Assembly: GCA_001783595.1 (NCBI GenBank) | Contig: MFMW01000016.1 | Span: 386 to 46,034 of the forward strand | Length of the DNA: 45,649 bases | Source: Candidatus Kuenenbacteria bacterium RIFCSPHIGHO2_02_FULL_39_13 | Lineage (GTDB): Bacteria > Patescibacteriota > Patescibacteriia > UBA2196 > GWA2-42-15 | Direction: 5' to 3' | Notes under the pieces: generated by a model | Databases searched by the model: none | Told to the model about the DNA's origin: nothing | The model's input: the letters and a program-made list of their open reading frames with translations, nothing else | Part shown: positions 37,160 to 41,084 of the stretch, one piece after another | Layout: each line of letters begins with the position of its first letter | How positions within the stretch are numbered: position 1 is the stretch's first letter | Program-made: the position numbers and the translations under genes

Positions 37160-37558
37160 TTATTTTCTCGCAACTTCTTTAATAAACTTGATAATTTCTT
37201 CAGCTGAATCAATTGCTTTTTTGGCTTCTTTTTTGCCGGCTGGCGGATATTCAGTTAGGGGATATCTGGCAATCAGATAAAATTGGCTTAAGTAACTTGT
37301 TTCGTCCGCAAAATCCAAAAAATCTTTTTCTATCTCGGCACATAATTTTAACAATTTAGTCAAATCGTGAATTTTGGGAAAACTATTTTTATGCAAAATT
37401 AAAAATCCTTTTAAATATTTTTCCGCTGCCTGCTGGGCGATAAAACAAATTTGCGCATAAAAAGCGCCAAATTCTTCAAAACTTGTTTGCGCGTATTTTA
37501 AATCATTGTCACCAATCGCAAACCACTTTTTAGCTTGCTGGCTATTTTTTTGCTTCAT
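37160..37558 (-). CDS. HEPN-domain protein (toxin of a HEPN/MNT pair)
   Basis: Start set at the internal ATG (MKQKNSQQAKKWF). QQAAEKYLKGFL and KIHDLTKLL are typical of small HEPN proteins. Overlaps the end of the upstream MNT gene. Confidence 0.75.
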   Translation of the reverse strand: MKQKNSQQAKKWFAIGDNDLKYAQTSFEEFGAFYAQICFIAQQAAEKYLKGFLILHKNSFPKIHDLTKLLKLCAEIEKDFLDFADETSYLSQFYLIARYPLTEYPPAGKKEAKKAIDSAEEIIKFIKEVARK

Positions 37559-37853
37559 ACAAAACCTTGCCGTTTTGAATGATGTCTTTAATAAAAAAAT
37601 CATCCACTAACAGACGACGTTTAATTTCTTGCGGTGTCATGACCAAAATATCAAAAGCAAAATCGGACCCCAATAAATATTTTCTCACTTCAGGAATTCT
37701 TTCATAAGGATTTTGTTTGGTATCTTTGATAATCAACAAATCCACATCGGAATCTTGATTTATTTTTCCATTAACATAACTGCCAAATAAAATTATCTTT
37801 TTAGGCTTATAATTCCTTAATTTCTTGGCAATGGTCAATATTTTTTTAGACAT
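37542..37853 (-). CDS. minimal nucleotidyltransferase (MNT) domain protein
   Basis: 103 aa. The LFGSYVNG..DSDVDLLII pattern (GS..DxD) of pol-beta-superfamily NTases. Confidence 0.8.
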   Translation of the reverse strand: MSKKILTIAKKLRNYKPKKIILFGSYVNGKINQDSDVDLLIIKDTKQNPYERIPEVRKYLLGSDFAFDILVMTPQEIKRRLLVDDFFIKDIIQNGKVLYEAKK

Positions 37854-37987
37854 AAAAATATTTTGTCTGCTCTAAAACCTCATCGCGAATATATGGACTT
37901 AAAGCGCCTCGCGTCACCAGATCAACTGGTAAATTTAATTTTAGAAATTAAATCCTTAAAATTAATTTGGGGAAATGTCTTGTTCAT
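37846..37987 (-). pseudogene. decayed nucleotidyltransferase gene remnant
   Basis: Minus strand reads MNKTFPQINFKDLISKIKFTS-stop. In another frame it reads VDLVTRGALSPYIRDEVLEQTKYFYV-stop, an MNT-like C-terminus. The catalytic core is missing. Confidence 0.45.
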
Positions 37988-38046
37988 ACTTTTATCTTAG
38001 CATAAATATTTGAAAAGTAAAACAACTGCCCGTCAGATACAACCCC

Positions 38047-38074
38047 TTGACTTTTTTTGACAATCTGCTACAAT
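38047..38074 (+). promoter_or_regulatory. putative sigma70 promoter for the DGR target gene
   Basis: TTGACT, 16-nt spacer, TACAAT, about 190 nt upstream of the target ATG. Confidence 0.5.
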
Positions 38075-38263
38075 AATGGTGTTATAAAATTCTTTGAAAA
38101 TATGGTTTAGAAATATGAGACGAGCGCCTTGGACGCTATAAAATATATAGTTTTCAAAGCGCTCGTCTCAAACAAGAGATAAGACCGTAGCCCCGCGGCA
38201 AGGGGTATCCGCTCTCTAAAGTCCTTAAAGGATGTGGAGAACAAATCAAAAAGGAGGTGTGCA

Positions 38264-39127
38264 ATGAGCACAAGCCAAAAAACAAGCGGTCTCTGGACAA
38301 TGACAAAGGGTGAGTTTGAGGAAAGCGTCTCCGCGTTGGAGAAAGCAGTTGTGAAGCAGGGAGGTAATCCCCGCGATCTCTTCGATCTCTTCCGCACTGA
38401 CGGTGAGTACGCCTGCCGCATCGCGCAAGCGATGATGCGCAAAGGTCTCGTTGGTTCCATCGAGTCGCGCCTAGCTCGGTTGGTTCTCGGTCGGAACATC
38501 TTCGACGATGCCGACTGGATGAGCTACTACGACGCCAAGTTCACCAAGAAGCAGTTCCGTGAAGCCGGGAAGTTTCCGTGGGGCGAAGACATCCTCAACA
38601 GTTCCTGCCCATTCAACTCGGGCAAGCTGGTGAAGGACACACACTTCGCATTTCTGGGTCTGACCGCCATCAACGGATCGCCGCTCACGGTGGCAAAGTG
38701 GCTCGAACTGCATCCGGCAACGGGCCAGCCGAAGTTATTCTGGAACACCGATCCGTGGCACACAGGCCAGCCCCACACCGATGTGGCGACCATGCAACTG
38801 CGCTGGTACTTGATGCTGAAGGGCGGCATCATTCCCGATTCCACGAGCAAGACGCCCGAGGAGCAGGTGGCAATGCTTCCGCCCGAGTACGAGGTGCCCA
38901 GCACCATCGCCGAAGTGACGAAGGACATTCTCGTCTTCCGTAAGACGGATGTTCGTCCGAATCCTTCTCACTGGGCGGCATGCACGGAACGCACAGTGAA
39001 GACCGACAAGGTCTCTGCTGGCTATGTCTCATGTGTCGGCCACTTCGACGAGGACGGCCTCAACGTCGGCTACTGGTACGGCGATCGCCACGACCGCGTT
39101 GGCCTCGGTGCGTCCCGGAAGTTCTGA
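38264..39127 (+). CDS. DGR variable (target) protein with C-terminal VR, probable C-type-lectin-fold ligand-binding domain
   Basis: ATG at 38264 preceded by AAGGAGG with a 6-nt spacer, preferred over the GTG at 38234. 287 aa. The last 36 codons overlap the VR. No N-terminal signal peptide or TM helix visible. About 60% GC in hand-counted lines. Confidence 0.88.
   Translation: MSTSQKTSGLWTMTKGEFEESVSALEKAVVKQGGNPRDLFDLFRTDGEYACRIAQAMMRKGLVGSIESRLARLVLGRNIFDDADWMSYYDAKFTKKQFREAGKFPWGEDILNSSCPFNSGKLVKDTHFAFLGLTAINGSPLTVAKWLELHPATGQPKLFWNTDPWHTGQPHTDVATMQLRWYLMLKGGIIPDSTSKTPEEQVAMLPPEYEVPSTIAEVTKDILVFRKTDVRPNPSHWAACTERTVKTDKVSAGYVSCVGHFDEDGLNVGYWYGDRHDRVGLGASRKF
39015..39120 (+). repeat. DGR variable region (VR)
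   Basis: 106 nt aligning without gaps to 39516..39621. The 11 mismatches are at 39023, 39041, 39053, 39068, 39069, 39071, 39077, 39083, 39089, 39095 and 39096, all opposite TR adenines. Confidence 0.92.
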
Positions 39128-39165
39128 ACCTTGAATACTTGAGGGTTTGGCCCTCTCGTAACCTT

Positions 39166-39206
39166 GAGCCTTCGGCGCGAAATTTTTTTCGTAGCGCCGG
39201 AGGCTC
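39166..39206 (+). terminator. GC-rich hairpin downstream of VR (target-gene terminator and/or DGR homing hairpin)
   Basis: GAGCCT-t-CGGCGC ... GCGCCG-g-AGGCTC followed by attttctttt. It starts 46 nt after the VR end. Confidence 0.6.
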
Positions 39207-39515
39207 ATTTTCTTTTATACTAACTTCTGATACAATAACTTCGTCTGCTAATGCAGGTGTGGTCACGGCTTCACCTCGCGGACGCCTCTTCTTTTAAGAG
39301 GTCACCGGAGTATCGTTGTCCAAGGATAACGATAGCGTGTGATAAAGAGTAGAGATGGAACTTCTTGCTTGTTTCTGGTGGAGGTTCTGCCTTTCAAAGG
39401 GCAGATGCTCCCGAATTAAATTCAAGGAAGAGAGTGTATGGGCTCGCAAGAGCAGTAATACTCAATTCTCGGTGATATGGATGGGAACAAGCAACATATG
39501 TTCGCACCGGCTCAT

Positions 39516-39621
39516 CTGCTGGCAATGTCTCATGTGTCGGCAACTTCGACGAGAACGGCCTCAACGTCAACAACTGGAACGGCAATCGCAACGACAACGT
39601 TGGCCTCGGTGCGTCCCGGAA
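39516..39621 (+). ncRNA. DGR template repeat (TR)
   Basis: In the VR reading frame it reads AGNVSCVGNFDENGLNVNNWNGNRNDNVGLGASRN. It contains 10 AAY codons, 9 of which are changed in VR. The region is non-coding, so the 117-aa ORF across it is rejected. Confidence 0.92.
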
Positions 39622-39644
39622 CTCCCATCTTTCTTCTATAAGAA

Positions 39645-39674
39645 TGCTCTCCTTTTGTGGAGGGCATTTCTTTT
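39645..39674 (+). terminator. intrinsic terminator immediately after TR
   Basis: 8-bp stem TGCTCTCC/GGAGGGCA (one G-U pair), loop ttttgt, then tttctttt. It abuts the avd stop codon on the opposite strand. Confidence 0.55.
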
Positions 39675-40023
39675 AGCGGTCTCGGGTAGACTTTATCCAG
39701 CCCCCTAACATCCTACCTATTTCATCTACATTTTGTTCCAAGCGGATGTATTTCTTACTGTCCAATACCTTGGTGTCTTTACAAAGCCGAAGAAAGACGC
39801 GCAGTAAGTTAAGTTTCGTGCTTGCTTTTTGGAGTATGGGTAATTTCTCTATTTTGGATAGCTGGCTTGCGCCGAGAATATATTCCAGAATTTCAAGGAT
39901 AAGATCTTCACACCGCTGCCAGATAGTATAACGGTCTTGTTTGGATACGGTATTGCGAAAACCATAGAATTCTTTGTAGAGTTCATAGGTCTTTTTAAAA
40001 ATTGGTATATCAAATTCGTCCAT
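39673..40023 (-). CDS. avd: DGR accessory variability determinant (Avd-like four-helix-bundle protein)
   Basis: 116 aa, basic and predicted all-helical. IPIFKKTYELYKEFY .. KQDRYTIWQRCEDL .. LLRVFLRLCKD .. IGRMLGGW resembles the Avd / 23S-rRNA-intervening-sequence protein family. Positioned between TR and RT. Confidence 0.8.
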   Translation of the reverse strand: MDEFDIPIFKKTYELYKEFYGFRNTVSKQDRYTIWQRCEDLILEILEYILGASQLSKIEKLPILQKASTKLNLLRVFLRLCKDTKVLDSKKYIRLEQNVDEIGRMLGGWIKSTRDR

Positions 40024-40034
40024 AGATAGATAGT

Positions 40035-41084
40035 ATGAAAATTTACAAAAATGTTTTTGAAAAAATAATCTCTTTAGAAAATCTCTTTTTGGCGTGGGAT
40101 AAATTCAAAAGCGACAAACAGAAAAGACAGGACGTGCGAAAATTTGAATGGCAACTTGAAGAAAACATTTTTAAGCTCCATAGGGATTTGAAATATAAAA
40201 GATACAAACACGGGGAATACGTCTCTTTTTACATTCAAGACCCAAAACAAAGACATATTCATAAGGCCACTGTCCGAGACCGCATACTTCACCATGCCGT
40301 CTTCGCCGCGCTTAGCCCAATCTTTGAGCCAACTTTTATCCCGAATTCTTTTTCTTGCCGTATCGGCAAAGGAACGCATAGGGGCATAGATATTCTGGAA
40401 AAAATACTAAAACAAGTAAGTGGCAATGCCTTTAAGCGGTGTTTTGTTCTTAAATGCGACATTAAAAAATTCTTTGAAACAATTGATCATAGAATTTTAT
40501 TAGACATCGTCCGTAAACGAGTAAAAGACGATGATGCCCTGCGGCTTTTGGAAGAAATTATTGAAAGTTTTTCTTCTAAATACTCCACGCTTTTTCAAAG
40601 AAAAGGCTTGCCCATAGGCAATTTAACCTCTCAACTGTTTGCTAATATCTACCTTAATGAATTTGACCAATTTGTCAAACACCACCTAAAAATAAAAAAC
40701 TACATTCGCTATACTGACGATTTTGTCATTATAGCTGGGGAAAGACTTTATTTAAAAAACATCATCGCCCCCATTCATTTCTTTTTTAAAAAGAAACTCG
40801 CTCTTGAGCTACACCCTAAAAAAATTACCATTCGTAAATTTCATCAAGGAATAGATTTCCTCGGCTACATTCTTCTGCCACATTATCGTTTACTGCGCGC
40901 CAAAACCAAGCAACGGATTTTCAGAAAATTAGAAAAAAGGGTAAGGGAATACAAGAATGAAACAATTAACAAACAAACTCTTGAGCAATCGCTCCAGTCC
41001 TATCTCGGCGTTCTTTCCCACGCCAATACATATAAACTTGGACAAAAAATGAAAAATCAATTCTGGTTTTGGCTAAGTGAATAG
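40035..41084 (+). CDS. DGR reverse transcriptase
   Basis: 349 aa. RT motifs CDIKKFFETIDH (A), GLPIGNLTSQLFANIYLNEFD (B, DGR-specific IGNxxSQ), YTDDFVII (C), GIDFLGY. No endonuclease or maturase domains. Confidence 0.93.
   Translation: MKIYKNVFEKIISLENLFLAWDKFKSDKQKRQDVRKFEWQLEENIFKLHRDLKYKRYKHGEYVSFYIQDPKQRHIHKATVRDRILHHAVFAALSPIFEPTFIPNSFSCRIGKGTHRGIDILEKILKQVSGNAFKRCFVLKCDIKKFFETIDHRILLDIVRKRVKDDDALRLLEEIIESFSSKYSTLFQRKGLPIGNLTSQLFANIYLNEFDQFVKHHLKIKNYIRYTDDFVIIAGERLYLKNIIAPIHFFFKKKLALELHPKKITIRKFHQGIDFLGYILLPHYRLLRAKTKQRIFRKLEKRVREYKNETINKQTLEQSLQSYLGVLSHANTYKLGQKMKNQFWFWLSE

Follow-up and report, generated by a model that had tools for sequence, protein, structure and literature searches.

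Template recognition and priming by the reverse transcriptase (RT) of a diversity-generating retroelement (DGR) are understood for a single phage element, that of the Bordetella phage BPP-1 (mtd-avd-TR-brt). Downstream of its template repeat (TR), the template RNA of this phage carries a spacer (Sp) that contains, in order, a primer strand pairing with the 3' end of the TR and ending in the priming adenosine, two nucleotides, one strand of an 11-bp 'cPRT Stop' duplex formed with the segment just upstream of the TR and, last, a short stem-loop and adenosines making A-minor contacts (Handa et al. 2024, bioRxiv 10.1101/2023.10.23.563531). For many DGRs, including those of the candidate phyla radiation (CPR), stem-loops downstream of the TR and duplexes between upstream and downstream segments have been described (bioRxiv 10.1101/2023.10.23.563531). 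In the CPR, the architecture B3, 'TR-(avd)-RT', accounts for 90% of the DGRs and is found almost nowhere else (Wu et al. 2018, PMC5758913), and a Patescibacteria-restricted 'DGR clade 2' is known for targets without recognisable domains (Roux et al. 2021, PMC8144416). The present work deals with a DGR of the B3 class and with the RNA predicted to contain its TR. It lies in a stretch of 45,649 nucleotides of contig MFMW01000016.1 (positions 386 to 46,034), from Candidatus Kuenenbacteria bacterium RIFCSPHIGHO2_02_FULL_39_13, referred to here as the window. The pair formed by its TR and its variable repeat (VR) adds one DGR, almost certainly a recently active one, to a group where DGR enrichment was already known, and alone changes little; the added value lies in the signs of recent activity, in a structured template RNA found throughout the lineage, and in two unexplained features, namely the CTTGA repeats downstream of the VR and the contrast in G+C content at third codon positions (GC3) between the target and the other genes.

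The genes and repeats of the locus are the following.
38264 to 39127, plus strand: DGR target gene, encoding 287 residues from the ATG at 38264 (the mechanical open reading frame starts at a GTG at 38234).
39014 to 39120, plus strand: VR, the last 36 codons of the target.
39515 to 39621, plus strand: TR, non-coding, with 26 adenines and 10 in-frame AAY codons (Y being C or T) within its mutagenised part.
39673 to 40023, minus strand: avd, accessory variability determinant, 116 residues, convergent with the TR and divergent from the RT gene.
40035 to 41084, plus strand: DGR RT gene, 349 residues, starting 11 nt beyond avd and matching RVT_1 (3e-21).

The RT carries the DGR signature [ILV]GxxxSQ as IGNLTSQ (residue 194) and the catalytic YTDD (residue 226). 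Its best solved relative was PDB 8ub7_A (328 residues, E = 3.7e-42 over the full length), which we take to be the Bordetella phage DGR RT, and group II intron RTs matched at 4.5e-24. The product of avd, an accessory gene that most but not all DGRs have, matched Pfam bAvd (PF22296; 4.8e-17, 62.8 bits, cut-off 40) and, just below the cut-off of 80, NCBIfam DivGenRetAVD (NF033474; 1.8e-22, 79.6 bits). The VR/TR reading, made in the original prediction from the letters alone, was borne out by all DGR features that a sequence can test: substitutions confined to adenines, a VR at the 3' end of an open reading frame, a non-coding TR beside an avd gene and an RT with the DGR signature. With its layout (target with VR, TR, avd reversed, RT) and its CPR-type host, it shares gene order, orientation and host group with the CPR DGRs of architecture B3, and likewise has a target without recognisable domain or transmembrane segment and a C-terminal, AAY-based VR; it is a member of this class, and nothing essential differs. 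Host group and domain-less target also agree with clade 2 of Roux et al., a likeness by description (PMC8144416). The relatives used for comparison were 22 genome loci, all from metagenome-assembled genomes (MAGs) and nearly all labelled as Patescibacteria lineages or as unclassified 'bacterium' (L002 alone bears the label Gammaproteobacteria). In 8 genome loci the genes were arranged as in the window, with target, TR, avd (minus strand) and RT (plus strand) in this order. Taken together with the comparisons given further below, there is little doubt that the locus is a complete, recently active chromosomal DGR of an ultra-small, Kuenenbacteria-like Patescibacteria bacterium.

The 394-nt spacer between VR and TR is conserved far above expectation. 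Blocks such as TGCTAATGCAG, GAACTTCTTG and TGCTCCCGAATAAAAT show no variation even between loci with an RT identity of only ~60%, and a degenerate pattern made from two spacer blocks retrieved at least 120 metagenome contigs (all locus counts from metagenomes given here are among the matches listed). An Avd homologue was found in 100 of the 121 motif loci listed, 98 of these 100 having it in the same convergent position, and in 93 of the 101 loci with at least 650 nt of downstream sequence. Across the motif loci, the RTs are 46% to 100% identical to that of the window, and the targets 24% to 94%. L053, L076 and the single IMG/VR match of the RNA pattern were discarded as chance matches; with the last of these, a phage origin was rejected as well, the IMG/VR contig having neither Avd nor RT and being seemingly the same as L053 (equal length and an identical 71-nt motif match), and the neighbours of the window locus being housekeeping genes. 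At gathering score, no Rfam family, the RT-1 to RT-19 motifs of Weinberg et al. 2017 included, matched 39000-40100; at E <= 10 the sole match was sroE (23 bits against a cut-off of 51), a terminator-like similarity attributed to chance. Full-text literature searches, incomplete in coverage, returned no description of a structured domain upstream of a TR, of the CTTGA repeats or of the GC3 contrast.

About 270 nt upstream of the TR are a conserved folded RNA, as shown by 57 comparative base pairs, with 95% of the cells paired and compensatory changes in 42 of the pairs. The TR ends 413 nt upstream of the RT start, and the covariation in its region reflects RNA structure, not coding. The elements of this 5' domain are listed here.
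39243 to 39357, plus strand: domain I, with the near-invariant UGCUAAUGCAG (39246-39256) and the helices of the next two lines.
39256-39263 with 39268-39275, and 39285-39290 with 39296-39301, plus strand: domain I helices.
39302-39305 with 39339-39342, 39311-39314 with 39331-39334, and 39318-39320 with 39325-39327, plus strand: three-part helix of domain I.
39358 to 39367, plus strand: GAACUUCUUG, invariant columns in 83 sequences, between a strand that pairs with the tail after the TR and the long-range helix.
39366 to 39493, plus strand: domain II, closed by an 11-bp long-range helix (39366-39376 with 39483-39493) that ends 21 nt before the TR.
39380-39383 with 39408-39411, and 39386-39390 with 39401-39405, plus strand: stem-loop 1 of domain II, within the long-range helix.
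39412 to 39421, plus strand: A-rich CGAAUUAAAU, within the long-range helix.
39423-39429 with 39466-39472, 39432-39435 with 39460-39463, and 39442-39445 with 39450-39453, plus strand: stem-loop 2 of domain II.

The alignment used for domain II, made with MAFFT and blind to structure, contained 83 non-redundant sequences and covered 39354-39526 of the window. RNAalifold returned 28 pairs, 21 of them with compensatory changes. When the outer part of one hairpin was included, 33 pairs were obtained, with 94.9% of the cells paired as against 78.5% for column shuffles and 38-54% for slid pairings; 25 pairs had changed on both sides, and the covariation score was reached by none of 500 shuffles. Eight pairs of the 11-bp helix covary, and this helix is followed by the stem-loop and then by CGAAUUAAAU. 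In domain I, 24 pairs were paired in 94.9% of the cells (34-42% when slid), and 17 of them showed compensatory changes; the UGCUAAUGCAG hairpin is almost invariant, hence its covariation is uninformative for or against. The many G-U pairs show that the folded strand is the plus strand, in the sense of the TR, and the window sequence folded alone by minimum free energy reproduced the helices (z = -4.7). From its position, GAACUUCUUG is predicted to be a site of RT engagement or of cis-priming. A pairing of GAACUUCUUG with the 3' end of the TR (GGAAC) was also considered; it fits one class of tails, fails in the GGCAG class and was rejected as a general feature. In a sub-lineage of five loci (L014, L015, L016, L019 and L097), the VR-TR spacer is longer (480-531 nt) and A+T-rich; additional sequence is inserted behind the A-rich junction (CTGATATAAGG...), and the GGAG/CUCC helix appears there in a compensatory form, GAAG/CUUC.

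The putative ends of the RNA, and the tail that follows the TR, are marked by three features.
39228 to 39236, plus strand: extended -10-like box TGaTACAAT, candidate promoter of the template RNA, with the RNA 5' end predicted near 39243.
39625 to 39632, plus strand: pyrimidine-rich tail strand CCAUCUUU, pairing with the purine-rich 39351-39358 just upstream of GAACUUCUUG.
39643 to 39674, plus strand: tail hairpin (arms 39643-39652 and 39659-39668) and U-rich run, stopping 5 nt before the avd stop codon.

A TAnAAT box precedes TGCTAATGCAG at a fixed distance in 68 sequences, and a hairpin of variable sequence was present in all tails inspected. The tail hairpin, whose stem is followed by only a modest U-tract, could terminate transcription in both directions and/or correspond to the Avd-binding stem-loop. 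With a promoter-like box upstream and a hairpin with a U-rich run downstream, a stand-alone RNA of ~430 nt is predicted. As for the tail duplex, at least 8 contiguous pairs can be formed in 36 of 62 loci, compared to 10.8% of shuffled tails, and compensatory variants occur (GGAUAGAG/CUCUAUCC and GAUGGAGA/UCUCCAUC). A covariation scan between 5' domain and tail on MAFFT columns was noisy, and a duplex-energy test, in which the cognate tail beat the non-cognate one in 42 of 62 loci, was weakly discriminating.

How such an RNA might work can be proposed by analogy with the Bordetella phage DGR: it would be transcribed from the promoter near 39228-39236, would end at the hairpin 39643-39674, and would be bound by RT and Avd, which would copy the TR into cDNA with random bases opposite adenines. 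Judging from the order of the elements, the 5' domain would do the job that is done in the Bordetella phage by the downstream Sp. The strand 39351-39358, which pairs with the tail just after the TR, would be like the template:primer duplex, with GAACUUCUUG next; the 11-bp helix at the 5' edge of the TR would be like the cPRT Stop duplex, and a stem-loop and then an A-rich stretch come last. The element order is that of the BPP-1 RNA, although the likeness of the 11-bp helix is one of form only. The place of these elements differs: in BPP-1 they lie in a 140-nt Sp downstream of the TR, whereas in the window they lie upstream of it, the TR being followed by a ~50-nt tail with one hairpin. No Bordetella-type downstream Sp (~140 nt) was found in 9 loci in which the distance from the TR to the convergent avd stop codon is 46-61 nt, a distance that leaves no room for it unless it were antisense to avd. 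Both systems share adenine-specific mutagenesis, the pair of Avd and RT, a G+C-rich end resembling the initiation of mutagenic homing (IMH) sequence and an inverted repeat after the VR. Unlike in BPP-1, avd is on the opposite strand in the window, hence the TR is not co-transcribed with the RT; moreover, the IMH does not differ from its TR counterpart (IMH*), an invariant 10-mer takes the place of the two-nucleotide linker, and the element is chromosomal instead of belonging to a phage.

The arrangement has a counterpart in retrons. In retron RNAs the template comes after a structured 5' part, a 5' strand is paired with the 3' end of the RNA in an a1/a2-like manner, and a conserved nucleotide just 3' of that strand primes from its 2'-OH. 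The topology of the retron msr-msd matches that proposed for the window RNA, in which the priming site is a predicted one. The two differ in that their RTs belong to different clades and in the fate of the product, which in the window would serve for homing into the VR and in retrons is kept as multicopy single-stranded DNA (msDNA).

The reading proposed here, considered a little less likely than not, is that of a stand-alone template RNA of ~430 nt with its own promoter, in which the scaffold would be circularly permuted with respect to that of the Bordetella phage, in a retron-like manner, and the 5' domain would replace the Sp. This proposal has its own weak spots: the priming role of the 5' domain is drawn by analogy from element order alone, and the tail duplex is moderately supported, because purine-rich and pyrimidine-rich strands easily pair by chance. 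There is also an alternative that seems unlikely, though not negligible, in which the conserved region between VR and TR would stand outside the RT machinery, either as a promoter and leader or as an independent small RNA or regulatory element (in stability or antisense control), priming being Bordetella-like from downstream sequence antisense to avd. The modest U-tract after the tail hairpin would agree with it, as read-through into antisense avd is possible, and so would the downstream stem-loops and the upstream/downstream duplexes reported for many DGRs, CPR included (bioRxiv 10.1101/2023.10.23.563531). Against such a role, the domain is contiguous with the TR, its covarying 11-bp helix ending ~21 nt before it; the tail directly behind the TR can pair with a strand of the domain; of the 101 loci with enough downstream sequence, 93 have the domain together with Avd and RT, over RT identities of 46% to 100%; its element order copies that of the Sp; and in all loci only ~50 nt separate the TR from the convergent avd stop codon. 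The last published survey of RNA elements in other DGRs was limited to 40 nt on the 5' side of the TR and 100 nt on its 3' side, so that this 5' domain would have escaped it. With at least 80 non-redundant sequences, a covariation-supported structure of the template RNA is now available for another DGR lineage, in which the order of the shared elements is different. Should the scaffold indeed be permuted, this would separate the essential features of the DGR ribonucleoprotein from those that depend on layout, and the compact, self-contained RNA would form with RT and Avd a module that can be tested and engineered.

Regarding the VR/TR pair itself, the alignment of 39015-39120 with 39516-39621 given in the original prediction was reproduced: without gaps, the two intervals, 501 nt apart, agree at 95 of 106 positions. 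The claimed 106 nt do align, and only the extent had to be amended, the exact repeat being 107 nt with one extra base on the 5' side (39014-39120 and 39515-39621). All 11 mismatches fall on TR adenines, as had been stated (hypergeometric P = 2.8e-8, from a composition of 26 A, 32 C, 29 G and 19 T over 106 nt). The translations that accompanied the alignment were correct, since frame 2 of the interval is the frame of the open reading frame 38234/38264-39127: the TR (downstream copy) reads AGNVSCVGNFDENGLNVNNWNGNRNDNVGLGASRN and the VR (upstream copy) reads AGYVSCVGHFDEDGLNVGYWYGDRHDRVGLGASRKF, followed by the stop. Nine AAY codons have been recoded, as announced (to Y, H, D, G, Y, Y, D, H and R), and one, in LNV, has been kept; an eleventh Asn codon of the TR (AA|C) spans the homology boundary, where the VR has AAG (Lys). 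The homology was said to end abruptly, and it is lost at 39121/39622. No further copy of the repeat was present in the window when both strands were scanned with the TR, its A positions left free, or with the 3' 45 nt of the TR only. The theoretical diversity, whose computation had been suggested, amounts to 4^24 = 2.8e14 DNA variants and 15^10 x 4^3 = 3.7e13 protein variants; the latter would be the upper limit for recoding at 10 Asn and 3 Asp/Glu codons at the C-terminus of the target.

Comparison of the VR across relatives, which had likewise been proposed as a check, provided the evidence for recent activity. The four assemblies compared (the window, the Kuenenbacteria contig PFHP01000022.1 and metagenome contigs with the same RT) have TRs identical at 107 of 107 positions and four VR alleles with 12-15 pairwise differences, all located at TR adenines save one. 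The terminal AA of the TR is constant across the four alleles; of the 24 adenines upstream of it, all but one are altered in one allele or more. Over 6.9 kb, the window shares 95.8% identity with PFHP01000022.1, which belongs to Candidatus Kuenenbacteria bacterium CG_4_8_14_3_um_filter_39_15 (locus L001) and has the DGR at the same chromosomal site, between the nrnA-like gene and infB. The flanking nrnA-like gene and infB are 88.5% and 92.8% identical, respectively, and the VR-TR spacer, the TR and the RT gene have no difference in 1551 nt, with 1 in 351 nt in avd. The two VRs differ at 15 positions, all of them TR adenines, and the VR of L001 departs from the TR by 18 changes at A sites, compared to 11 in the window. 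Because four VR alleles under one identical TR differ almost only at TR adenines, the element must have been active recently; and since the VR differs while ~1.5 kb of cassette is identical, diversification came later than any substitution in that stretch. Near-identical cassettes that have a single, unchanging TR in common and differ in their VR alleles, four in number, make a clean natural example of diversification that outpaces the other substitutions of a cassette. The RT and Avd proteins of L001, as well as protein AUK13_02330 of the CG2_30_39_24 MAG, are 100% identical to those of the window; a cassette with identical RT, Avd proteins and TR was already in GenBank, and the DGR itself is of an already known type.

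The same adenine bias extends to the lineage. A VR/TR pair was found in 11 of the 22 related genome loci, with all mismatches (9-20 per locus) at TR adenines in 9 of the 11; of the remaining two, one has 18 of 19 at adenines and the other, L009, is degenerate. Across 74 metagenome loci, 838 of 900 mismatches were at TR adenines, the ends having been trimmed automatically and crudely, so that the other 62 may include edge noise.

Several points must be set against the picture of a complete and recently active DGR. In one VR allele (L070 and L087), TGG has become TGT (Trp to Cys) at a TR guanine, the equivalent of 39075, which is either an ordinary mutation or a rare misincorporation opposite a non-adenine base; in L009, the second copy is VR-like, with mixed-base mismatches; activity in this particular genome would follow from comparison between assemblies; and Foldseek gave no significant match for the target structure (best E = 0.68), so that a C-type-lectin fold is no more than plausible. 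Accordingly, one may ask whether the element is a relic that once diversified its target and is now inactive here, the VR/TR differences being frozen history. No direct sign of activity comes from this genome itself and decayed relatives do exist, some with the target but only an RT fragment (L006, L044, L060), one with a degenerate TR (L009). This reading is nevertheless very improbable, given that target, avd and RT are all intact, with the catalytic YTDD kept, that spacer, TR and RT are 100% identical to those of a relative, with avd one nucleotide off, in spite of the 15 TR-adenine differences in the VR, and that one TR underlies four VR alleles. An ordinary or assembly duplication that diverged by chance has nothing in its favour except that a 107-nt direct repeat exists. 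The mismatch spectrum and independent assemblies already refute it: all differences are at adenines of one copy and occupy positions 1 and 2 of AAY codons, that A-rich copy adjoins Avd and RT, and the same layout recurs in dozens of independent assemblies, which excludes the assembly artefact that the original prediction had named as a way to refute it.

The decayed cassettes deserve a separate description. In L044 and L060 the target and the 5' RNA domain are intact, whereas the TR and avd are missing and no more than the C-terminal third of the RT is left; in L006 (6435-6563), target and 5' RNA domain are also intact and only a 43-residue C-terminal fragment of the RT follows the TR. As the target is retained in these cassettes, the target family outlasts the loss of its diversifier. 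L009 is a 2.9-kb MAG contig with copies at 1066-1174 and 1552-1660; the second copy is not AAC-rich and has 18 mismatches on all four bases, 4 of them at A. This 'TR' has the look of a template that has degenerated or of what was once a VR; the contig has nevertheless retained the 5' RNA domain.

The way in which the VR could be told apart from the TR involves three further features.
39097 to 39120, plus strand: IMH-like, G+C-rich 3' end of the VR, identical to the 3' end of the TR (39598-39621).
39128 to 39167, plus strand: CTTGA region downstream of the VR, with CTTGA at 39130, 39138 and 39163 and a degenerate copy at 39155.
39166 to 39218, plus strand: 13-bp G+C-rich inverted repeat (arms 39166-39178 and 39194-39206) and T-run, beginning 46 nt after the VR.

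The original prediction singled out the last 24 nt shared by VR and TR as identical and G+C-rich, and so they are (71% G+C); by analogy with the Bordetella phage IMH, it is plausible that they act as an IMH. In the mechanism outlined above, the cDNA would replace the VR, and this G+C-rich end would set the 3' boundary. Identical IMH and IMH* occur in other DGRs, in which the recipient is marked further downstream (Wu et al. 2018, PMC5758913); as they are identical here too, a mark specific to the VR must lie downstream. At least three CTTGA copies were found in 38 of 59 non-redundant loci, compared to 0 of 1180 shuffles. The copies are spaced by about one helical turn just 3' of the target stop codon, flank a small hairpin (39141-39145 with 39151-39155), are conserved lineage-wide and are not present after the TR. 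This region could be a recognition element specific to the VR, a protein-binding site that marks the recipient. The 13-bp inverted repeat, also absent after the TR, shows compensatory arm changes between loci (for instance, L008 and L021), and from its sequence it is probably the intrinsic terminator of the target and/or the known cruciform-type repeat downstream of the IMH. By analogy with the Bordetella phage, these elements found only downstream of the VR (CTTGA repeats and hairpin) would mark the recipient, and the repeats are a candidate answer to how recipient and donor are distinguished when IMH and IMH* are identical.

The homologues of the target begin at MSTSQKTSGLW. There are 238 of them, all unnamed, forming a Patescibacteria-wide 'hypothetical protein' family whose organism-labelled members come from Kuenen-, Yanofsky-, Pace-, Falkow-, Lipton- and Kaiserbacteria; the target is a widespread protein family diversified across many Patescibacteria lineages. 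Sequence searches of the target in Pfam, NCBIfam and PDB returned no match. An AlphaFold2 model (94 sequences; predicted local distance difference test, pLDDT, 90.1; predicted template modelling score, pTM, 0.76) shows a helical N-terminal part and a mixed C-terminal domain that ends in the VR strands. Foldseek searches with this model gave nothing at E < 0.001 in PDB and BFVD (best E = 0.68 and 1.9); the weak top matches, none significant, are enriched in FGE/EgtB domains, C-type lectins and a sulfatase-modifying-factor-like phage protein, and on the model a divergent C-type-lectin-like fold is plausible. In an alignment of 35 target homologues, variation is concentrated at the AAY-templated positions (AG.VSCVG.F...GL.V..W.G.R...VG.GASRKF).

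The base composition of the target sets it apart from the rest of the locus. Its GC3 is 0.74 (GC 0.58), compared to 0.37 for the RT, 0.44 for avd and 0.37-0.43 for the housekeeping neighbours, and the G+C contrast is lineage-wide (in 11 loci, 0.50-0.65 for targets and 0.32-0.41 for avd and RT), A and T being both depleted. In comparisons between the same loci, targets are better conserved (~80% amino acid identity) than RTs (64%). Recombination or transfer of a module of target and TR, or GC-biased gene conversion, are possibilities to account for the GC3 contrast. Outside the VR, the targets of the window and L001 have 22 differences, nearly all in three patches (38440-38473, 38737-38764 and 38822-38837), one with a 3-nt indel; they are not adenine-specific (for example, LFWNT..T compared to FYFNN..V), and P0002 has the variants of the window in these patches, a pattern that suggests mosaic recombination between target alleles. 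Upstream of the gene, a sigma-70-like promoter match (38047-38074; TTGACT-16-TACAAT with TG) lies ~190 nt 5' of the ATG and is followed, in the presumed 5' untranslated region, by an inverted repeat (38116-38140 and 38146-38170, 25-nt arms, 84% complementary).

The neighbours of the DGR in the window are the housekeeping genes clpP, the nrnA-like DHH gene and infB. One further pair of genes is found on its upstream side.
37160 to 37603 and 37542 to 37853, minus strand: overlapping genes for a HEPN protein (PF05168, 2.9e-28) and a minimal nucleotidyltransferase (PF18765, 1.7e-12).

From this pair through the DGR (37160-41084), the window is 99.7-100% identical to PFHP01000022.1, the target gene excepted. 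No integrase was found in this segment; the DGR and the toxin-antitoxin-like pair behave as an island, recently exchanged or swept. The HEPN/nucleotidyltransferase pair lies directly upstream of the DGR target and resembles a type II toxin-antitoxin module.

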